Positions 1 through 8,756 of a stretch of DNA of 8,756 nucleotides are shown piece after piece; position 1 is the stretch's first letter, and each line of letters opens with the position of its first letter. The notes below the pieces were generated by a model. It was not told the DNA's origin. It did no database searches and worked only from the letters and a program-made list of their open reading frames with translations. The translations under genes were made by a program, and so were the position numbers. The stretch is from Escherichia coli (GTDB lineage: Bacteria; Pseudomonadota; Gammaproteobacteria; Enterobacterales; Enterobacteriaceae): the NCBI RefSeq assembly GCF_003334385.1, contig NZ_QOWN01000071.1; one strand, 5' to 3'.

Positions 1-99
1 AACGCGAGGCATCGTCTTAACGAGGCACCGAGGCGTCGCATTCTTCAGATGGTTCAACCCTTAAGTTAGCGCTTATGAGATTTTTCCCCGCCAGCGTCA

Positions 100-876
100 T
101 CATTTCCGGATTTTCGCCAGTGCATCCGCCATGCTGCGGATTTCATCCCGTGCCTCCAGAACAACCTCCCGCAGAATATCCCGGTCAAACCAGCGACGGG
201 ACGGTTCATCCGGTATACGCAGCACATCACAGACCAGACCACTGGCCAGGATATGCTCAATACAATCGCTGACCAGGTACATTTCCACCGACGAAAAACG
301 TGCTCCCCGGTTCACGATGGCATCGAGCACCACGGGCAGATTTTCGTCATCTTCATCAAGCCAGCAGGGGTAATCGCTTTCCTTCACAACCAGACGAAAG
401 CGGCGCGTCTGGCGGGTCAGCAACGTCTGACCGGTGGTGGTCAACGCCGCACGGATACGCCGCGCATCTTCTGCCACCCGGCAACTGACACTGCATACTG
501 CATCGCGCACCGCATCAAAAACCGCCCTGATTTCTTCCTCCGTCAGCCATTCACCGGCATACGGGAAAGACACCTGCGTTCCGTCTGCCGGAAGTACCGG
601 CAGCGACTGCCACTGACTGCCGGACAGTACAACTTCCGCCCCGGTTCCGGTCAGTTTCTGAATGGCGGAGGCCAGGTGCGGCGGCAGCACGCCATCGTGG
701 CGGTTAACGAGTAACGTCGCCAGCCGGGGCGCATCCAGCAGAACATAAATGCTGATCCAGCCCGGATACTTCGGGTTACGCTGGTCAACATCCGTCTCTT
801 CCGGCCAGCCCTGCGCCAGCAGCAGGTTGCGGGCGTGACGACAAATCAGTGCGTTCAGCGTTGTGTTTTCGTTCAT
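100..876 (-). CDS. Hypothetical protein (258 aa), last gene of the methyltransferase-led operon
   Basis: Long ORF on the minus strand. The reverse complement of 877-895 gives ttcaGGGAGAacgattaat immediately before the ATG, a Shine-Dalgarno-like GGGAGA. It follows the three upstream minus-strand genes with short gaps. I do not recognise a family; function unknown. Confidence 0.7.
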
Positions 877-921
877 GATTAATCGTTCTCCCTGAATCGC
901 CGCCCGGAGGCGGCGATAACA

Positions 922-1356
922 TCAGTCGTTTTCGTGTCTGTTGTTTTTCAGCAGGGTGCGGGCCTGATTAATCACCGCCTGACGGCGGGTGACGCATTCC
1001 GGGACGGCGAGGCCATAATCCCGGGCGGCCCATTCACGTTTCCACAATGCCTGTTCAGCGGTCTGAATCAGGGACGTCAGCAGTTCAGCAGGGACGGTCA
1101 CCTGGCGGTTTTCTCTCACGTTATTGATGATCTCCATCGCCACGCCGGAAGAAATACCGGATTCAGTCCGCTGGTCTTCCGGGATGTCCTCCAGGCGCGC
1201 CAGGACGGTTCTGATTTCATGATCGGACAGAGAAATATCCATTCCGTCAGCGAGGGCCTGAATCTCTTCCGGGGACCAGATAACCAGCATCAGCGGCGTG
1301 TCTCCCGGATACTTTGCTGCCAGCGCCCGGCATAGCGTTTCGCATGTTCCGTACAT
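922..1356 (-). CDS. Hypothetical protein (144 aa), third gene of the methyltransferase-led operon
   Basis: ORF with a strong RBS: the reverse complement upstream of the ATG reads gattgAGAAGGAGAcgaga-ATG. It sits 13 bp downstream of the preceding minus-strand gene. No family recognised from the sequence alone. Confidence 0.7.
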   Translation of the reverse strand: MYGTCETLCRALAAKYPGDTPLMLVIWSPEEIQALADGMDISLSDHEIRTVLARLEDIPEDQRTESGISSGVAMEIINNVRENRQVTVPAELLTSLIQTAEQALWKREWAARDYGLAVPECVTRRQAVINQARTLLKNNRHEND

Positions 1357-1369
1357 TCTCGTCTCCTTC

Positions 1370-1591
1370 TCAATCTTTGAAGCAGGAATCCAGTTCCAGA
1401 ATTTCGGTATACGCCTCCATGAACAGGCGATTGGCGCGATACAGCGTCTGGCGTGTCAGGCGTTCAACAAGCACATCGGAATCAAAGCGACAGCGATGCT
1501 CCATATCGTTCAGCCTGGCCCGAAGGTCACACATGGTGTTGGCCACCTCCGCCACGTCGGCGCGAAGTTTTTCGTGTCCGGCATAGTTCAT
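1370..1591 (-). CDS. Hypothetical small protein (73 aa), translationally coupled to the methyltransferase gene
   Basis: Its ATG directly abuts the methyltransferase stop (minus strand reads ...TAA-ATG). GGAGG lies 8 nt upstream of the ATG, inside the methyltransferase 3' end. Small size makes the call less certain. Confidence 0.6.
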   Translation of the reverse strand: MNYAGHEKLRADVAEVANTMCDLRARLNDMEHRCRFDSDVLVERLTRQTLYRANRLFMEAYTEILELDSCFKD

Positions 1592-2275
1592 TTACGCAGC
1601 CTCCGGTTCAAACCAGTTATCATTCGCGGCCCCCTGCTGCATGGCCCGTTGCACGGCGGCCAGTCGTTGCTGTCCGGCACGGTGATACTGTTCAAGCAGC
1701 TCGATACCGATATACCGGCGTCCGGACTGAAGGGCGGCCACGCAGGTTGAGCCGCTGCCTGCAAACGGGTCCAGCACAATCGCGTTCGGATGTGTGAAGC
1801 TCTCAATCAGCGGTTGCAGGCTGGTAACGGGCTTTTCCGTCGGGTGATGACGATTGCCTGAATATTTCCAGCCCAGCACATCCGGCAGAGGGTTACGGGG
1901 CCGGGCCGGACTGCCCTTTGCCAGGATGTAAGCGCATTCGTGGCGGTACGCGACATACGCAGATTTGGATGTGTAGTTTTTGGTGAACACGAGGTGCCCT
2001 GCCACGCTGAATCCGGCGCGTTTCCAGGCCGCCATAAAGCGGTCAATACGGTGCCAGCCGTAGAAGCTGACCATCAGCGCGTCTTTTTTGAGTACGCGGT
2101 ACATTTCATTACAGGCCGGTTGCAGCCATTCATCGGTTTTATCGCCAGCGATGGTGCGCCCGAAACGGTCACGAAAACCGACGAGGTACGGCGGGTCAGT
2201 CAGTATGAAATCAATGGCGTTATCAGGAATACGGGCCATAACATCGATGCAGTTACCGAGGACAAAACGGGACAT
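1592..2275 (-). CDS. Orphan DNA methyltransferase, N6-adenine/N4-cytosine beta-class (227 aa)
   Basis: The translation contains DPPY near the N-terminus (ILTDPPYLVGF) followed later by an FxGxG AdoMet-binding motif (VLDPFAGSGST) and HPTEKP. This motif order is typical of beta-class amino-methyltransferases. RBS AGGAG lies upstream of the ATG (reverse complement of 2276-2290 is agaAGGAGcgttgtt). No restriction endonuclease partner is adjacent. Confidence 0.85.
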   Translation of the reverse strand: MSRFVLGNCIDVMARIPDNAIDFILTDPPYLVGFRDRFGRTIAGDKTDEWLQPACNEMYRVLKKDALMVSFYGWHRIDRFMAAWKRAGFSVAGHLVFTKNYTSKSAYVAYRHECAYILAKGSPARPRNPLPDVLGWKYSGNRHHPTEKPVTSLQPLIESFTHPNAIVLDPFAGSGSTCVAALQSGRRYIGIELLEQYHRAGQQRLAAVQRAMQQGAANDNWFEPEAA

Positions 2276-2620
2276 AACAACGCTCCTTCTCTTACAGAGG
2301 ACACCAGGAGGGCACCCCTGTGGTGCCCGTTCCCCGCTGCCTGTGGGCTGTTCACCGCGTCCGGTAACGGGTCAGGCCGACCGTGGAATACCGCAGCAGC
2401 CGTCGTCTTTCTGACGGCAAGGCTATGCCGCGAAAGCGGCTTGAAGGGCGTTCATCAGAAAAGGGCTCCTGGCTGGCGTACACTGGCACCGACGCCAGCC
2501 AGGAGCGGTAAAAGCGCCCGTCCCGTGCCTGATCGGACGCGGGACACTGACCACAGGCAGCGTTCCTGCCGCGCCGCGTCAGCCGGCGCAGTAAAAAGAG
2601 GAGCCCGGCGACATCCTTTG
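2276..2620 (-). promoter_or_regulatory. GC-rich, hairpin-dense non-coding leader upstream of the methyltransferase operon (possible promoter or single-strand promoter-like element)
   Basis: No credible ORF with an RBS. Inverted repeats read directly: perfect 15-bp stem gctcctggctggcgt (2465-2479) with acgccagccaggagc (2492-2506) and a 12-nt loop; GGGCACC (2310-2316) with GGTGCCC (2322-2328); GCCGTC (2399-2404) with GACGGC (2413-2418); gtcccg (2520-2525) with cgggac (2540-2545). The region lies between the parR terminator and the methyltransferase start. Confidence 0.45.
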
Positions 2621-2654
2621 TCGGAAAAGAAAAAAGGACGCAACAGCGTCCTTT
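2621..2654 (-). terminator. Rho-independent terminator downstream of the parR-like gene
   Basis: Stem AGGACGC (2635-2641) and GCGTCCT (2646-2652) with loop AACA. On the minus strand the hairpin is followed by a U-run (plus-strand A-run ggaaaagaaaaaa at 2621-2634). It sits 16 bp after the parR-like stop. Confidence 0.65.
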
Positions 2655-2669
2655 AACAGAGTTCAGTTC

Positions 2670-3098
2670 TTATTCATCATCCGGAAACAAGTTCTTAATG
2701 TTGTTTCTTGTTTCCAGGAGATTCTGATCGACTGGAGCAGATATTTCTTGCGTAGCAGAATCAACCGCAGGCAGGATCGTTTTTGCATTATTACCGGCAG
2801 ACTGCAGAAATGCCTCCAGCAAACGAACAACTTCACCATTTTCCTGTTGTGGTAGCGTACTACTGATAATTCGTTGAATATCCCGCATAGACGTGCTGTC
2901 TGTCAGGAATTCAGCTATCAGAAACGGCAATCGTTCATCCTGTTTCATCAATGCAGCACCACACAACATCATGGCCCGCATTGCCCGACCACGTTCTTTC
3001 TGAGGCAATTTTTCAAGAAACCTGTCAGCCACCCGATCAGCTGCATTTCGTTCCGGATAAATATAAAAAGAGCACTTACGATTATCAGCCATACTCAT
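2670..3098 (-). CDS. parR: ParR/StbB-like centromere-binding partition protein (142 aa)
   Basis: Small gene immediately downstream of the parM-like gene and overlapping it by 4 nt (ATGA). By recollection it resembles plasmid R1 ParR in its central part (...LPQKERGRAMRAMMLCGAALMKQDERLPFLIAEFLT...). An alternative start two codons in (3092) has better SD spacing. Confidence 0.65.
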   Translation of the reverse strand: MSMADNRKCSFYIYPERNAADRVADRFLEKLPQKERGRAMRAMMLCGAALMKQDERLPFLIAEFLTDSTSMRDIQRIISSTLPQQENGEVVRLLEAFLQSAGNNAKTILPAVDSATQEISAPVDQNLLETRNNIKNLFPDDE

Positions 3099-4075
3099 CC
3101 CTTCATTGCCATCATTCCCAACACCAGATCGAACTGAGGATTGTCACTGACAAAGAAACGGTTATCACCCACTCCTGTCGCTTTTTTTACTGCCCCAGCC
3201 ACAAGGCTGGCACCACCGCCAACAACCATAACATGAGTAAAACCAGCAAAGCGTCCTACTGAATCCGCCACACGATGCTGCAGTTTTTTTTCCCGGTCAC
3301 GTAATACTGTCAGGATCTGCTCACGCTGTTCTGCATTCGGGATATAACGAGTCAGGAATTCATTGTCATCCCGGCCCTGGATTAGACGATCTGCAAAATA
3401 AGAACTGGTTCGTGTACTCACATTCACATCCATCGCATGCTTAACTGCTTCAGTAATGATGGAAACGCCTGTCTTGGGGTCACAATAAGTTTTTGTGAAA
3501 CCGGACATTTTGCTGCGGACATGTGCAATATCAAGGGTCGTTCCACCGATATCAACGATCAACAGCGACTCCAGATCATTCAGATCTTTCAGCACGTCAA
3601 AACCGGCAGGCACGGACTCAGGCAAGACACTGACTTTACGAATGGTAAAGTTTTCACGCCCCTGAACTGTTACAGCTCGTCTGACATTATTTTTCTTACG
3701 TTCGATATTAGCCAGATTTGGCTGATCGTTCTCATCCAGATACTCACCTAAAGGTAAAGTCACAACAATATCAACAGGTTGCGGAGCAATACCTGACTGC
3801 ATCAACGCATGATGAATAGCAACCACATTAACGTCGCTGTACTGATAACGCGTTTCTGTGGTGCGCACTGCATCCGGACTCAATTGATCAAAGCTGTATT
3901 TCTCTCCATCAATCTCATAGTTTGCGGAAGCGGGTATAGTGGCATCAGTCAGTCCCTGCAGCGTCATAGACCATTCCGGTTTAAAACTATTCGGGCTAAT
4001 TAACGTTTTCACTGCACCGTCTTCAACCCAAGCCAGTTTGATGTTGGTAGAACCGTCATCTACAAAGATACGCAT
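3095..4075 (-). CDS. parM: ParM/StbA-like actin-family plasmid segregation ATPase
   Basis: The N-terminus MRIFVDDGSTNIKL, the phosphate-2-like LIVDIGGTTLDIAHV, and HVMVVGGGASLV match recalled ParM/StbA (R1/R100) motifs. I place the start at the ATG at 4075-4073, preceded by GTGAGGTTCTGG. The ORF track extends to a GTG at 4087 that overlaps that SD. Confidence 0.85.
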   Translation of the reverse strand: MRIFVDDGSTNIKLAWVEDGAVKTLISPNSFKPEWSMTLQGLTDATIPASANYEIDGEKYSFDQLSPDAVRTTETRYQYSDVNVVAIHHALMQSGIAPQPVDIVVTLPLGEYLDENDQPNLANIERKKNNVRRAVTVQGRENFTIRKVSVLPESVPAGFDVLKDLNDLESLLIVDIGGTTLDIAHVRSKMSGFTKTYCDPKTGVSIITEAVKHAMDVNVSTRTSSYFADRLIQGRDDNEFLTRYIPNAEQREQILTVLRDREKKLQHRVADSVGRFAGFTHVMVVGGGASLVAGAVKKATGVGDNRFFVSDNPQFDLVLGMMAMKG

Positions 4076-4087
4076 CCAGAACCTCAC

Positions 4088-4300
4088 AGAATAAAATGGA
4101 TTTTTTTAGAAAAATATGGTGTCGAAAAAGATTATCACCTAGAAACACGCATCAGTAAAGACCTGATATCGGCCACAAACAGAAAGATAAAGAAAAATAA
4201 AGACAAAAACCGACTCAAATAGCACACCAGGGAACAAACAAGAACAATAAAAGACAAATGCAGTTAAAATTCAGAAAAAAACTGAACAGGTGAACGGAGA
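4088..4300 (-). promoter_or_regulatory. AT-rich upstream region of the parMR-like operon (putative promoter and parC-like centromere)
   Basis: About 210 bp of A-rich non-coding sequence directly upstream of parM, where parC sits in known parMRC loci. Loose recurrences of aaagac/aaagat motifs are visible, but I could not delineate clear iterons by eye. Confidence 0.3.
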
Positions 4301-4664
4301 AGGGGGCTCATCCAGCACATGCTGTATTTGGGTTCAGTTTGGAATTCGGAAAATAAACCACGTTAAGACTATTTTTTAGCCAAATGGCTTTCAGGAATCG
4401 CCAGAATGGCGGGACAACAGTGGTTTTGGTGTCCGAAATCGTACAATTCTGTACATCTACGCAAGGAAATGTACGGAAGTAAGCCAAATGGTTATCGGAC
4501 GGTAGGAACATTTCGTACAGCCTTTACGTTCAGTGAGTGAGCTGGTCTGGATGTAACCACTCGTTCAACTCAATTCTCTTAGCGTGGGAAAATTTCCTTT
4601 CTCCAAGCGGCTCCCAAACCGTAATTCCCGGCAAGCCCGGTAAGCTGGGCAGCAAGCTAGGCAC

Positions 4665-4964
4665 TCAAAGAATGAACCGGGGATTCTGACGCTGACCTAC
4701 AACCGCCAGGATATTGACACGACGGGCCTTATCATTCACTTCATAAAGTACATGCTGCCCAAGTAAGCTAATACGACGAACCCCTTCGCCATAGCGTTCA
4801 TCAGTTTCATACAGCCGAGGGTAATCAGCCAGGCGATCGGTTGCAGTGATCAGACGCTCTGTCACGTTCCTTGCATCCCAAAGAGATGCATTCTCAGCCA
4901 GATATTCAAACAGCGCAGTTATATCTTCAATTGCACCTGGTCGCCATTCTATTTCATAACTCAT
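4665..4964 (-). CDS. RelE/ParE-superfamily toxin of a type II toxin-antitoxin module (99 aa)
   Basis: About 100-aa protein whose start overlaps the upstream small gene by 11 nt. The sequence pattern (YEIEWRPGAIEDI..., ...RRVNILAVVGQRQN) is consistent with RelE/ParE-fold toxins as I recall them. Confidence 0.7.
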   Translation of the reverse strand: MSYEIEWRPGAIEDITALFEYLAENASLWDARNVTERLITATDRLADYPRLYETDERYGEGVRRISLLGQHVLYEVNDKARRVNILAVVGQRQNPRFIL

Positions 4965-5217
4965 TGCGCAGTTCCTGATAACGTCCCTGTAGTTGCTGGC
5001 GCAGTTGCGCGGAACTCATTCCCGGCCGCTTATCGGCGCGAGCAGCGGCAACTTTCGCTCGTATCTGTTCGTCGTATTCTGCCCGTGCCAGTTCTTCATT
5101 AGCAAGGCGTTGCAATAGTGCAGACTTGTCTGTACTGCCTTCTGGAAAAATACGAGGCAGGCTTTCGGCCAGCTCGCGCAGGAAATTGGCGTTTTCGTAA
5201 TGTGTGGTGCTATTCAT
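4954..5217 (-). CDS. Putative antitoxin of the RelE/ParE-type module (87 aa from the second ATG)
   Basis: Small ORF upstream of and overlapping the toxin gene (antitoxin-first order). I prefer the second ATG at 5217 because the minus strand reads ATGAAGGGGGAGTCAACT-ATG, which places a GGGGGAG SD about 7 nt before it. The ORF track starts at 5235. Antitoxin family uncertain. Confidence 0.6.
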   Translation of the reverse strand: MNSTTHYENANFLRELAESLPRIFPEGSTDKSALLQRLANEELARAEYDEQIRAKVAAARADKRPGMSSAQLRQQLQGRYQELRNEL

Positions 5218-5291
5218 AGTTGACTCCCCCTTCATTTAATAAAGAGCAATTACAGGTTTTTTGATGTCGTACGCATGGGTATAACGAGTCA

Positions 5292-5305
5292 GAATATCGA
5301 TATTC
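5292..5305. promoter_or_regulatory. Perfect 14-bp palindrome GAATATCGATATTC upstream of the toxin-antitoxin operon (candidate operator)
   Basis: Read directly; self-complementary. It lies about 75-88 bp upstream of the preferred antitoxin ATG. Type II antitoxins commonly autoregulate through palindromic operators. Confidence 0.3.
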
Positions 5306-5619
5306 ACTCCGATGATATTGTTTCACAGGCAGGCGATAACCGGAAAATAATGCTCATTTACCTGGCAATCTGCGTGTTGTCAGGTTTTATACAGAGTATA
5401 TAACCTTTCAGACACAGCCACCAACATATGCCGCGTCAGCGGCATGGAAGGCGGTACTCTGTGGTTACATGCGGCACAAGTGTAAAACCGCCGAAGCCCG
5501 GCGTAAGCCGGTACTGATTGACAGGTTTCACCTTACCCACCCCCGGCCCTGCCAGACAGTGGGGGCTTAAAGGGGTAGTGTGACATCCTGACAGCAACTG
5601 AAAGCAAAATGTAAACACA

Positions 5620-5812
5620 ATATTAATTTTTGTAAAAAAGCAATAACTATACAAACATAACTAACTGATATTACTATTAAATATTTAACAGGCGTACAAA
5701 TTTAGTTCAAATTATCATTGCAAAATATAGTTAATTACAGCAAGTAACTAGTGTTGGCCAACATACTATTCAGATGTCATAAGCATTAATTTCCCTTAAA
5801 AAAGGAGTCCTT
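5620..5812 (+). promoter_or_regulatory. AT-rich promoter and leader region of the microcin B17 operon
   Basis: Strongly AT-rich tract directly upstream of mcbA. Candidate -10-like hexamers are TATAGT (5726-5731) and TCATAA (5777-5782), the latter with TTGGCC (5754-5759) 17 bp upstream. mcbA RBS AGGAG is at 5803-5807, 5 nt before the ATG. Exact promoter not mapped. Confidence 0.4.
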
Positions 5813-6010
5813 ATGGAATTAAAAGCGAGTGAATTTGGTGTAGTTTTGTCCGTTGATGCTCTTAAATTATCACGCCAGTCTCCATTAGGTGTTGGCATTG
5901 GTGGTGGTGGCGGCGGTAGCTGCGGTGGTCAAGGTGGCGGTTGTGGTGGTTGCAGCAACGGTTGTAGTGGTGGAAACGGTGGCAGCGGCGGAAGTGGTTC
6001 ACATATCTGA
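5813..6010 (+). CDS. mcbA: Microcin B17 precursor peptide McbA, variant with a shortened poly-Gly linker (65 aa)
   Basis: The translation MELKASEFGVVLSVDALKLSRQSPLG-VGIGGGGGG-SCGGQGGGCGGCSNGCSGGNGGSGGSGSHI matches the microcin B17 leader and core as I recall them, including the Gly-Ser-Cys and Gly-Cys-Ser heterocyclisation sites. Only 6 Gly codons (5900-5917) follow VGI. Confidence 0.95.
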   Translation: MELKASEFGVVLSVDALKLSRQSPLGVGIGGGGGGSCGGQGGGCGGCSNGCSGGNGGSGGSGSHI

Positions 6011-6027
6011 TACGTTGAATTAACCGT

Positions 6028-6050
6028 TCAGGGAGCATGGTGCTCCCTGA
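6028..6050 (+). promoter_or_regulatory. Perfect stem-loop between mcbA and mcbB (10-bp stem, 3-nt loop)
   Basis: tCAGGGAGCA (6028-6037), loop TGG, TGCTCCCTGa (6041-6050), verified base by base. It starts 18 nt after the mcbA stop and encloses the first in-frame ATG of the mcbB ORF (6037). It is not followed by a U-tract. Confidence 0.5.
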
Positions 6051-6924
6051 TATTAAAAAAGGAAAAGATATGATCAATATTCTGCCATTTGAGATAATTT
6101 CCAGAAATACAAAGACCCTGCTTATTACCTACATTTCTTCAGTAGACATTACACATGAGGGAATGAAAAAAGTACTCGAAAGCCTACGATCCAAACAGGG
6201 TATTATTTCTGAATACCTCCTTGATAAACTACTGGACGAATCGCTTATTGATAAAGACAAGGGCAAAGAGTTTCTTATTACCACAGGCGTGATAAATAAA
6301 ACGAAAACATCACCTCTCTGGGTAAACTCAGTCATAATAAGCGATGTTCCACATCTTTTCAGTAATGCCCGGGAACAATGGAAATCTGATGGTGTTTTTG
6401 TTTCTCATATCATTGATATAAAAGATAATAATATTAATGTGAGCGATTCAACACTAATCTGGTTACATCTCGAAAACTATCATTCAGACATTGTAAAAAG
6501 AATCTATTCAAAATTTGAAAGTAACCCTGGTGTTGCCTTCATCCAAAGCTACTACCTAAAGGAGTCATTCAGGATAGATGGAGTATATTCACCTGATCTT
6601 GGTACTCCCTGCCATTTTTGTCATATAGAGAGATGGCTGAGCAGGGAAGAAAAAAGCTTCAGACGTAACGAAATGTCCTGGGCAAATTTACTTCAGTTAC
6701 TGAAAAAATACTAAATGACACTACCAGCATTGGCTTTAGGCGAGTCAGAAAGAGGATTCAGCTATCATTTAATAAAACGGCGACTTCAGGAGTTGACAGG
6801 TACTTCACTGGTTAAAAGTCATGTCGATAGCTTTATGTCATCTGTTAGCGCTGATTTAATCACCTGTATTTTATGTAAAGAGCCGGTAATTCACTGGCAG
6901 GCTTGCAGCTGTCTGGAGAGATAA
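6037..6924 (+). pseudogene. mcbB: mcbB (microcin B17 synthetase zinc-binding scaffold subunit) interrupted by an in-frame TAA at 6712-6714
   Basis: The 225-aa ORF 6037-6714 and the 69-aa ORF 6715-6924 are in the same frame, separated only by TAA. Together they give 225+1+69 = 295 codons, which is the McbB length I recall. CHFCH lies in the N-terminal part and CILC...CSC in the C-terminal part. An RBS-supported alternative start is the ATG at 6070 (AGGA at 6060-6063). Confidence 0.8.
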
Positions 6925-6925
6925 C

Positions 6926-7744
6926 ATGTCAAAACACGAACTCTCTTTAGTGGAAGTAACGCATTACACAGATCCTGAAGTTCTGGCCATTGTTAAAGAT
7001 TTTCATGTCAGAGGTAACTTTGCTTCCCTCCCCGAATTTGCTGAACGAACTTTCGTGTCCGCGGTACCTCTTGCCCATCTGGAGAAATTTGAAAATAAAG
7101 AAGTTCTCTTCAGGCCAGGTTTCAGCTCCGTAATAAACATATCCTCATCACATAATTTTAGTCGTGAAAGGCTCCCATCAGGAATAAACTTTTGCGACAA
7201 AAATAAACTTTCCATTCGTACTATTGAAAAGTTATTAGTCAATGCATTCAGCTCACCTGATCCTAGCTCTGTAAGAAGACCTTATCCTTCTGGGGGGGCA
7301 TTGTGCCCGATTGAAGTTTTTTTATGCAGATTATCTGAAAATACAGAAAACTGGCAGTCAGGAACTAATGTTTATCACTACCTGCCGCTAAGTCAGGCAC
7401 TGGAACCTGTTGCTACATGTAATACTCAGTCACTCTACCGAAGCCTGTCCGGTGGGGATTCGGAACGTCTTGGTAAACCCCATTTTGCTCTCGTCTATTG
7501 CATTATTTTTGAAAAAGCTTTGTTCAAATATCGCTACAGAGGATACCGGATGGCCTTAATGGAAACAGGTTCGATGTATCAGAACGCAGTATTGGTTGCA
7601 GATCAAATAGGACTGAAAAACCGGGTATGGGCGGGATATACCGATTCATACGTAGCAAAAACAATGAATCTGGATCAGAGGACTGTAGCGCCACTGATCG
7701 TTCAGTTTTTTGGAGATGTAAACGATGATAAATGTCTACAGTAA
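6926..7744 (+). CDS. mcbC: McbC, FMN-dependent dehydrogenase of microcin B17 synthetase (272 aa)
   Basis: 272-aa ORF, matching the McbC length I recall. It starts 1 nt after the mcbB stop, with GGAGAG 7 nt upstream, and contains a nitroreductase-like RPYPSGGALCPIE region. The gene order follows the known mcb operon. Confidence 0.93.
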   Translation: MSKHELSLVEVTHYTDPEVLAIVKDFHVRGNFASLPEFAERTFVSAVPLAHLEKFENKEVLFRPGFSSVINISSSHNFSRERLPSGINFCDKNKLSIRTIEKLLVNAFSSPDPSSVRRPYPSGGALCPIEVFLCRLSENTENWQSGTNVYHYLPLSQALEPVATCNTQSLYRSLSGGDSERLGKPHFALVYCIIFEKALFKYRYRGYRMALMETGSMYQNAVLVADQIGLKNRVWAGYTDSYVAKTMNLDQRTVAPLIVQFFGDVNDDKCLQ

Positions 7745-8618
7745 CCTTATGTCCGCATGGCCGGCCACAATGGCCATGAGTCCAAAACTGAACAGAAATA
7801 TGCCAACGTTTTCTCAGATATGGGACTATGAGCGTATTACACCAGCCAGCGCGGCCGGTGAAACTCTGAAGTCAATTCAGGGGGCAATAGGTGAATATTT
7901 TGAACGCCGTCATTTTTTTAATGAGATAGTCACCGGTGGTCAGAAAACATTATATGAGATGATGCCTCCATCTGCTGCAAAGGCTTTTACCGAAGCATTT
8001 TTTCAGATCTCATCACTGACCCGCGATGAAATCATAACCCATAAATTTAAAACGGTCAGAGCCTTTAATCTGTTTAGCCTTGAACAACAAGAAATACCTG
8101 CAGTCATAATTGCACTCGACAATATAACCGCTGCAGATGATCTGAAATTTTATCCTGACAGAGATACATGCGGATGTAGCTTTCATGGTAGTTTGAACGA
8201 TGCCATAGAAGGTTCCTTGTGTGAATTTATGGAGAGACAGTCCCTCCTTCTTTACTGGTTACAGGGAAAAGCCAATACTGAAATATCCAGTGAAATAGTA
8301 ACAGGCATAAATCATATTGATGAGATTTTACTGGCTCTCAGGTCAGAAGGAGATATCAGGATTTTCGATATCACCCTGCCCGGAGCTCCTGGACACGCAG
8401 TACTAACCCTGTATGGCACAAAAAACAAAATCAGTCGAATAAAATACAGTACCGGATTATCCTATGCTAATAGTCTGAAAAAAGCACTTTGTAAATCCGT
8501 AGTGGAATTGTGGCAATCGTATATATGCCTGCACAACTTTCTTATTGGCGGTTATACTGATGATGACATTATTGATAGTTACCAGCGTCACTTTATGTCA
8601 TGCAACAAGTACGGGTAA
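7725..8618 (+). pseudogene. mcbD: mcbD (YcaO-type cyclodehydratase of microcin B17 synthetase) truncated by an IS1-family insertion
   Basis: The ORF starts MINVYSNLMSAW... and overlaps the mcbC end by 20 nt. It runs 296 mcbD codons and then ends in G-stop, where the codons are supplied by the IS1 terminal repeat (GG-TAA-TG). McbD is about 396 aa by recollection, so roughly the C-terminal 100 residues are missing. Confidence 0.88.
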
Positions 8619-8636
8619 TGACTCCAACTTACTGAT
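8614..8636. repeat. IS1 terminal inverted repeat (23 bp)
   Basis: GGTAATGACTCCAACTTACTGAT matches the IS1 terminal inverted repeat consensus. It directly abuts mcbD coding sequence. Confidence 0.75.
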
Positions 8637-8756
8637 AGTGTTTTATGTTCAGATAATGCCCGATGACCTTGTCATGCAACTCCACCGATTTTGAGAACGA
8701 CAGTAACTTCCGTCCCAGCCTTGCCAGATGTTGTCTCAGATTCAGATTATGTCGCT
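8629..8756 (-). CDS. insB: IS1 transposase InsB, C-terminal fragment (5' end outside the window)
   Basis: The minus-strand translation ...[41 protein letters not shown]-stop matches the IS1 InsB C-terminus from memory. The stop TAA is the complement of 8629-8631. Confidence 0.75.

Follow-up and report, generated by a model that had tools for sequence, protein, structure and literature searches.

A probable relic of the microcin B17 operon joined to an IS1F element in Escherichia coli

Introduction

The closest described system is the mcbABCDEFG operon of F-type plasmids (pMccB17), which encodes microcin B17, a TOMM/LAP product, and for which structures of McbBCD are available (PDB 6GOS, 6GRG, 6GRH and 6GRI). 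On intact plasmids the genes mcbE, mcbF and mcbG come after mcbD, with an IncFII replicon beyond them. The length of the linker in the McbA precursor is known to influence processing. McbB contains a structural zinc site (Cys192, Cys195, Cys290 and Cys292), and residues 393-396 are among the most conserved parts of the cyclodehydratase McbD, with the C-terminal Pro396 placed in the active site (PMC6395948). Deletion of Pro396 alone stalls processing at the tetra-azole product (PMC6395948).

The second known entity relevant here is IS1F, a divergent IS1 isoform that lies beside the fec (ferric citrate) locus in E. coli chromosomes. IS1 elements classically truncate genes, delete adjacent DNA and fuse replicons. 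We analysed a stretch of 8,756 bp, hereafter the window, that constitutes the entire NCBI contig QOWN01000071.1 (GCA_003334385.1). It carries mcbA, mcbB, mcbC and mcbD in the same order as the F-type operons, and shares 99.4% DNA identity with the intact operon of CP057527 over window positions 5498-8613. It differs from intact F-type mcb plasmids in that IS1 and, as read in near-identical contigs, an IncI1-type backbone replace mcbEFG and the FII replicon. It differs from the intact operon itself by the loss of McbD residues 297-396, a nonsense codon in mcbB (Q226*) and three substitutions in McbC (G114S, Y127C and A145S).

Results and Discussion

The junction between mcbD and IS1

The boundary can be read directly: mcbD proceeds as ...AAC AAG TAC G, and GGTAATGACTCCAACTTACTGAT begins at position 8614. 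Identity of mcbD to the CP057527 operon stops at 8613 (alignment over window 5600-8616), and the native codon 297 is GAG. The resulting ORF (7725-8618, plus strand) is 297 aa long and comprises native McbD residues 1-296 plus one glycine, followed by a stop. Only the first G of the added glycine codon (GGG, 8613-8615) is native, and the TAA stop (8616-8618, plus strand) lies wholly within the IS1 inverted repeat. A first-pass annotation, made from the letters of the window, was thus correct in its coordinates, in its count of 296 intact codons, in its reading of G-TAA and in assigning the stop to the repeat. When all three frames into the repeat were read, the mcbD frame alone was found to meet an immediate stop, so that the abrupt termination is a one-in-three accident.

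The truncated product retains a Pfam YcaO match, and over residues 1-296 it matches the crystallised protein exactly (6GOS chain D). Full-length McbD has 396 aa (CP057527 and 6GOS chain D; also 6GRG, 6GRH and 6GRI), and the site of the junction is uninterrupted in 122 of 122 PLSDB records containing mcbD. Together these rule out a naturally short McbD ending near residue 296, an outcome that the annotation had named as one that would undermine its reading. The loss amounts to 100 of 396 residues (25%), in line with its estimate that about a quarter of the YcaO cyclodehydratase had been removed.

Occurrence of the truncated gene

An exact-protein look-up recovered the 297-aa product from 195 blocks of the public collection, on 95 contigs. 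The sources are NCBI isolate assemblies, ENA gut metagenomes and Logan, and the NCBI copies are named Escherichia coli. The 195 blocks compare with about 19,500 for an McbE allele of intact operons, a frequency of roughly 1%. The mcbD-IS1 junction is present in none of 72,556 PLSDB plasmids and none of 5,426 complete RefSeq E. coli genomes; thus, there is no closed reference for it. Literature searches for mcbD with IS1, for the specific junction and for the assembly accessions found nothing. An 'empty site' plasmid with the same left-hand context was not identified, the best candidate covering at most 68% of window 2600-5560.

Sequence beyond the contig end

The contig breaks inside IS1 and provides nothing past 8756. 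Over window 77-8756, eight sibling loci match at 99.7-99.9% identity; IS1 is read through in five of them (L002, L003/L024, L004, L005 and L006). L002, L003 and L006 are short-read metagenome scaffolds, and L004 is a 210-kb contig (UFYM01000001.1, GCA_900447915.1). Reading of the sibling contigs extended roughly 10 kb from the junction in each direction, and the far flank of the window's own IS1 is predicted from siblings with 99.9% identity.

In the siblings the far IS1 end (...ATCAGTAAGTTGGCAGCATTACC) leads into GGGAAAAGGAATGAAATGG... instead of mcbD. The flank past IS1 is of IncI1 type, reads GGGAAAAGGAATG... and contains a 102-aa ORF, ParA, a ResD-type integrase and a colicin-Ia-immunity region. 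It shares 97% identity with I-complex plasmids, IncI-gamma/K1 among them, and over the initial 243 bp it matches ColIb-P9 (NC_002122) and R64 (NC_005014) at 100%. The nine bases flanking IS1 in the siblings are ACAAGTACG on the left and GGGAAAAGG on the right, and no 8-9-bp target-site duplication was found around the element in the siblings that span it. The missing duplication speaks against a simple insertion, not against the identity of the element as IS1. Lacking in the 10 kb past IS1 in the siblings are mcbE, mcbF, mcbG and an IncFII replicon; mcbEFG are also absent from the window. The locus lacks at least 2,332 bp, corresponding to codon 297 of mcbD through the end of mcbG.

These contigs revise the first-pass annotation, which had proposed that IS1 was inserted into mcbD and that the remainder of mcbD and mcbEFG lay beyond the element. 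Of what it expected past 8756, the other end of IS1 was found in the siblings, but neither the duplication nor a resumption of mcbD at codon 297; the far IS1 end adjoins the IncI1-type backbone instead. Because the far flank is foreign and there is no target duplication, the IS1 site is best read from these sequences as a rearrangement breakpoint, produced by a deletion or a replicon fusion, rather than as a simple insertion.

IS1 ends were observed at both partners of this junction in other contexts. In pDLI.5a (CP103973; about 5060-5300 of locus L035), a plasmid that bears aat/capU, a separate IS1 end is positioned 20 bp away from the same IncI1-type flank, upstream of the module comprising the 102-aa ORF, ParA and the integrase. 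This flank seems to be a recurrent IS1 boundary. In a chromosome-sized contig of 5.29 Mb (GCA_901421095.1; locus L046, 1-520), the junction of an IS1 end (...GCAGCATTACC) falls within mcbB, at the equivalent of position 7232 in the CP057527 locus (L001), and mcbC, mcbD, mcbE, mcbF and mcbG are intact past that junction. The two loci are alike in pointing to recurrent IS1 activity at the junction partners and, as their breakpoints differ, both events are independent of the mcbD junction.

The IS1F element

Positions 8614-8756 (minus strand) are the right, insB-proximal end of an IS1F-type element, of which 143 of 768 bp are present before the contig stops. They are identical at 143 of 143 positions (E 4e-59) to elements annotated in RefSeq as 'IS1-like element IS1F family transposase', and the description of the downstream sequence as IS1-like is borne out. 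The 23-bp terminal inverted repeat (IRR, 8614-8636) fits the repeat type of about 23 bp known for IS1, GGT(G/A)ATG...CCAACTTACTGAT. With up to five mismatches allowed, no other motif in the window resembles an IS1 end, and a second IS1 end, as in a composite transposon, was not identified there. The last 41 codons and the stop of insB occupy 8629-8756 on the minus strand; the InsB C-terminus reported by the annotation is seen in the translation of 8629-8754. Pfam PF03400 (DDE_Tnp_IS1) matches the corresponding IS1 ORFs of the sibling contigs.

The complete element in L002-L006 is 768 bp long (e.g., L004 10890-11657). Its insB contains an internal stop (TGG to TAG, a tryptophan codon), so that InsB reads ...FEVVV*MTDGWPLY; the stop falls at the window equivalent of 8839-8841, just past the contig end. 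The IS1 copy spanned by the siblings is a pseudogene. With this stop in insB the resident copy is unable to make its own transposase and could not have moved by itself.

The sibling element corresponds to the fec-linked IS1F found next to fecI in E. coli chromosomes (loci L022 and L023; the copy in CP031215), the insB stop included, at 768 of 768 positions save one 18-bp indel. The indel is a duplication near the IRR that is found in the chromosomal copy only (L022 1501-2286) and not in the plasmid copy. The fec-linked element is annotated 'programmed frameshift; internal stop'. Because the plasmid and fec-linked copies share the insB stop, a transposase-defective IS1F exists in at least two genomic places. 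The likeness thus extends over the 768 bp in the siblings and, at 100%, over the 143 bp of the window; the difference is one of setting, as the fec-linked copy is chromosomal whereas the copy described here is plasmid-borne, lies between mcbD and an I-complex backbone, and lacks a target duplication.

The remaining mcb operon

The precursor gene mcbA (5813-6010, plus strand) is intact. It encodes a leader and a Gly/Ser/Cys-rich core in a 65-aa allele with a six-glycine linker, identical to that of the intact CP057527 operon. The poly-Gly linker (window approximately 5900-5917) has 6 Gly in 65 aa, versus 10 Gly in the classic protein of 69 aa. McbA alleles of 65, 66, 68 and 69 aa occur in intact operons elsewhere; thus, the GGC repeat of mcbA appears to vary by slippage.

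Alignment to intact McbB identifies mcbB (6037-6924, plus strand) as a pseudogene. A CAG to TAG change at 6712-6714 (Q226*) splits the 295-aa gene into ORFs of 225 and 69 aa, and the substitution N264S is also present. The nonsense codon precedes Cys290 and Cys292, so that two of the four zinc ligands of McbB are lost. Q226* is common to every junction-bearing contig. Thus, IS1, which the first-pass annotation took to be the inactivating lesion, is not the only one and may not be the first, as the mcbB stop lies upstream in the same window.

The gene for the FMN dehydrogenase, mcbC (6926-7744, plus strand), is full length. Relative to the crystallised protein it carries G114S, Y127C and A145S (window 7265, 7305 and 7358), changes that also differ from the alleles of intact plasmids. 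The catalytic pair Lys201-Tyr202 is kept.

Because 100 C-terminal residues of McbD are lost, among them 393-396 with Pro396, normal synthesis should be abolished. This agrees with the prediction of the annotation that heterocycle (thiazole and oxazole) installation would be lost, given the roles assigned to the tail residues (PMC6395948). Missing from the set expected of a functional microcin B17 (TOMM/LAP) locus are a full-length McbB, a full-length McbD with the 393-396 tail, and downstream mcbEFG. From the structure-function data of PMC6395948, we conclude that what remains of the mcb cluster is predicted to be a non-functional relic.

Further lesions are found in the siblings. Most have a 4-bp deletion in mcbB (window 6634-6637; L004 8913/8914) that causes a frameshift, and most encode McbA with G53D (L004 8250; window 5970). 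The L003/L024 lineage instead has a 9-bp in-frame insertion in mcbC (L003 9763-9771; after window 7495). Since the siblings carry lesions that are absent from the window, the window is among the less decayed versions. The continuing decay of mcbA, mcbB and mcbC indicates that the biosynthetic part is not under selection.

Two Logan contigs, L029 and L033, have Q226* together with wild-type mcbC, a mcbA with 9 or 10 Gly codons and a left context like that of CP057527, and their last base corresponds to window 8613. That they end at the junction base suggests a graph fork, with intact and truncated alleles together in the samples. The contigs were set aside as a means of dating Q226* before IS1, as a contig end exactly at the fork suggests an allele mixture and a bubble-popped consensus.

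Origin of the junction

We consider it likely that the locus arose through an IS1-linked adjacent deletion, or through the fusion of F-type and I-complex plasmids with deletion, and that a non-functional relic now hitch-hikes on a mosaic plasmid. IS1 would then mark the breakpoint of an IS1-mediated rearrangement. One option is an adjacent deletion by intramolecular transposition; the other is that an F-type MccB17 plasmid fused with an I-complex plasmid and a deletion followed. By either route mcbD codons 297-396 and mcbEFG would have been lost (at least 2.3 kb), and the defective IS1F would have been left at the seam between mcbD codon 296 and the I-complex backbone. As in known IS1 adjacent deletions and replicon fusions, one IS1 is kept at the breakpoint with no target duplication across it, unrelated sequence lies at one end, and a contiguous block of neighbouring genes is gone. 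The locus differs from those cases in that the resident copy is transposase-defective and the event is reconstructed from sequence. Possible routes to the junction are trans-complementation, an event predating the insB stop, and homologous recombination between copies of IS1F; as the resident copy is transposase-defective, the last is equally plausible. The cell would make neither microcin B17 nor immunity from this locus, and hitch-hiking on a mosaic plasmid circulating among E. coli probably explains why the relic persists.

Other explanations account less well for these observations. Short-read assemblers are at their least dependable in repeats, and the contig terminates in one, so a chimeric join of a mcbD contig to a repeated IS1 had to be considered, as the first-pass annotation had advised. 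This is scarcely credible, as the identical junction and 297-aa product are shared by the 95 contigs from independent sources (isolate assemblies, metagenomes and Logan unitigs), and the junction is also on the 210-kb contig and on contigs from different assemblers. A simple insertion would have left an 8-9-bp duplication, with mcbD from codon 297 onward and mcbEFG intact just past the contig end, and IS1 should be followed by ACAAGTACGAGTCGTTTACGG. IS1 commonly makes simple insertions, and the window alone is compatible with one since the contig breaks inside the element. However, five siblings that match the 8.7 kb of the window at 99.7-99.9% have the IncI1-type backbone after the element and no duplication, the junction is in no PLSDB record and no complete RefSeq E. 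coli genome, and the reciprocal junction went unseen in a low-power scan, all of which makes a simple insertion very improbable.

Alternatively, the junction could be one of a pair generated by an IS1 cointegrate or inversion, with IS1, the 3' part of mcbD and mcbEFG located elsewhere on the plasmid, and immunity and export perhaps kept. IS1 forms cointegrates, the element here joins segments typical of two plasmid backbones, and the 210-kb sibling contig is big enough for a fusion plasmid. Half-operons do occur, as in the IS1 junction of L046 with the 3' part of mcbB and mcbCDEFG. Nonetheless, we regard this arrangement as unlikely. The short-read scaffolds L002, L003 and L006 pass through IS1, which suggests a single copy and makes a second identical one there unlikely. 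All ten distinct contexts listed for the common McbE allele (43 contigs, from the 24 blocks with the longest contigs) follow an uninterrupted mcbD junction site. The decay of mcbA, mcbB and mcbC also argues against it, the biosynthetic part not being under selection. The reciprocal junction (an IS1 end, 0-9 nt, then mcbD from codon 297 onward) was found zero times in JGI metagenome contigs, a weak count against this arrangement that is nearly uninformative given that the positive control, a scan for the observed junction, returned only one contig. An exact-protein look-up for McbG on the 210-kb contig was discarded as evidence, the allele being rare (649 blocks, versus about 19,000 for McbE and McbF).

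Two more unusual readings, that a non-autonomous IS1F was mobilised in trans or that the relic is retained through a residual role of mcbA or of the N-terminal fragment of McbD, appear quite improbable. If the former were true, an insB-nonsense IS1F matching the fec-linked copy would have relocated to a plasmid and made a new junction with the help, in trans, of other isoforms of IS1, although the IS1 transposase is generally regarded as chiefly cis-acting. Homologous recombination between copies of IS1F, together with neutral hitch-hiking, is far more probable than either.

Implications for annotation

A genome-mining tool whose scoring relies on mcbA, mcbC or a YcaO match would label this locus a microcin B17/TOMM cluster. 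The locus has lost the immunity genes and is predicted to be unable to make the toxin, which counsels caution in bacteriocin and RiPP mining. Database entries name the 297-aa product 'hypothetical protein', with partial or shorter-start forms of the gene entered as 'YcaO-like family protein'; a pseudogene flag is warranted. On a small scale the locus illustrates how a bacteriocin operon decays step by step once an IS element has created a breakpoint, and how IS1 can form the seam joining F-type to I-complex plasmid segments. The mcb operon and IS1F are both textbook entities and the process is ordinary pseudogene decay; current understanding is unchallenged by it.

Other features of the window

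Six substitutions relative to CP057527 cluster at window 5640-5674, in the promoter region about 140-170 bp upstream of mcbA, and look like a small recombination patch. The 3' end of a ParE/YacB-type toxin gene (window 4653-4765) includes 113 bp with 93% identity to positions 12605-12717 of the CP057527 locus, a segment that lies downstream of mcbG in intact MccB17 plasmids. The match is possibly a trace of an older arrangement.

At the start of the window, the first 76-77 bases fail to align with most siblings. Positions 1-77 equal L026 47-123, a repeat with several copies in plasmid leading regions (near ygcA, ygdA and pndC). An initial assignment of window 1-76 to the end of an IS66-family element was rejected, as the sequence is this multi-copy leading-region repeat. 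Position 77 of the window joins L026 2293, and 2,169 bp are skipped, including the antirestriction gene ardA. This join may mark a contig-graph boundary (k=77), or copies of the repeat may have recombined.
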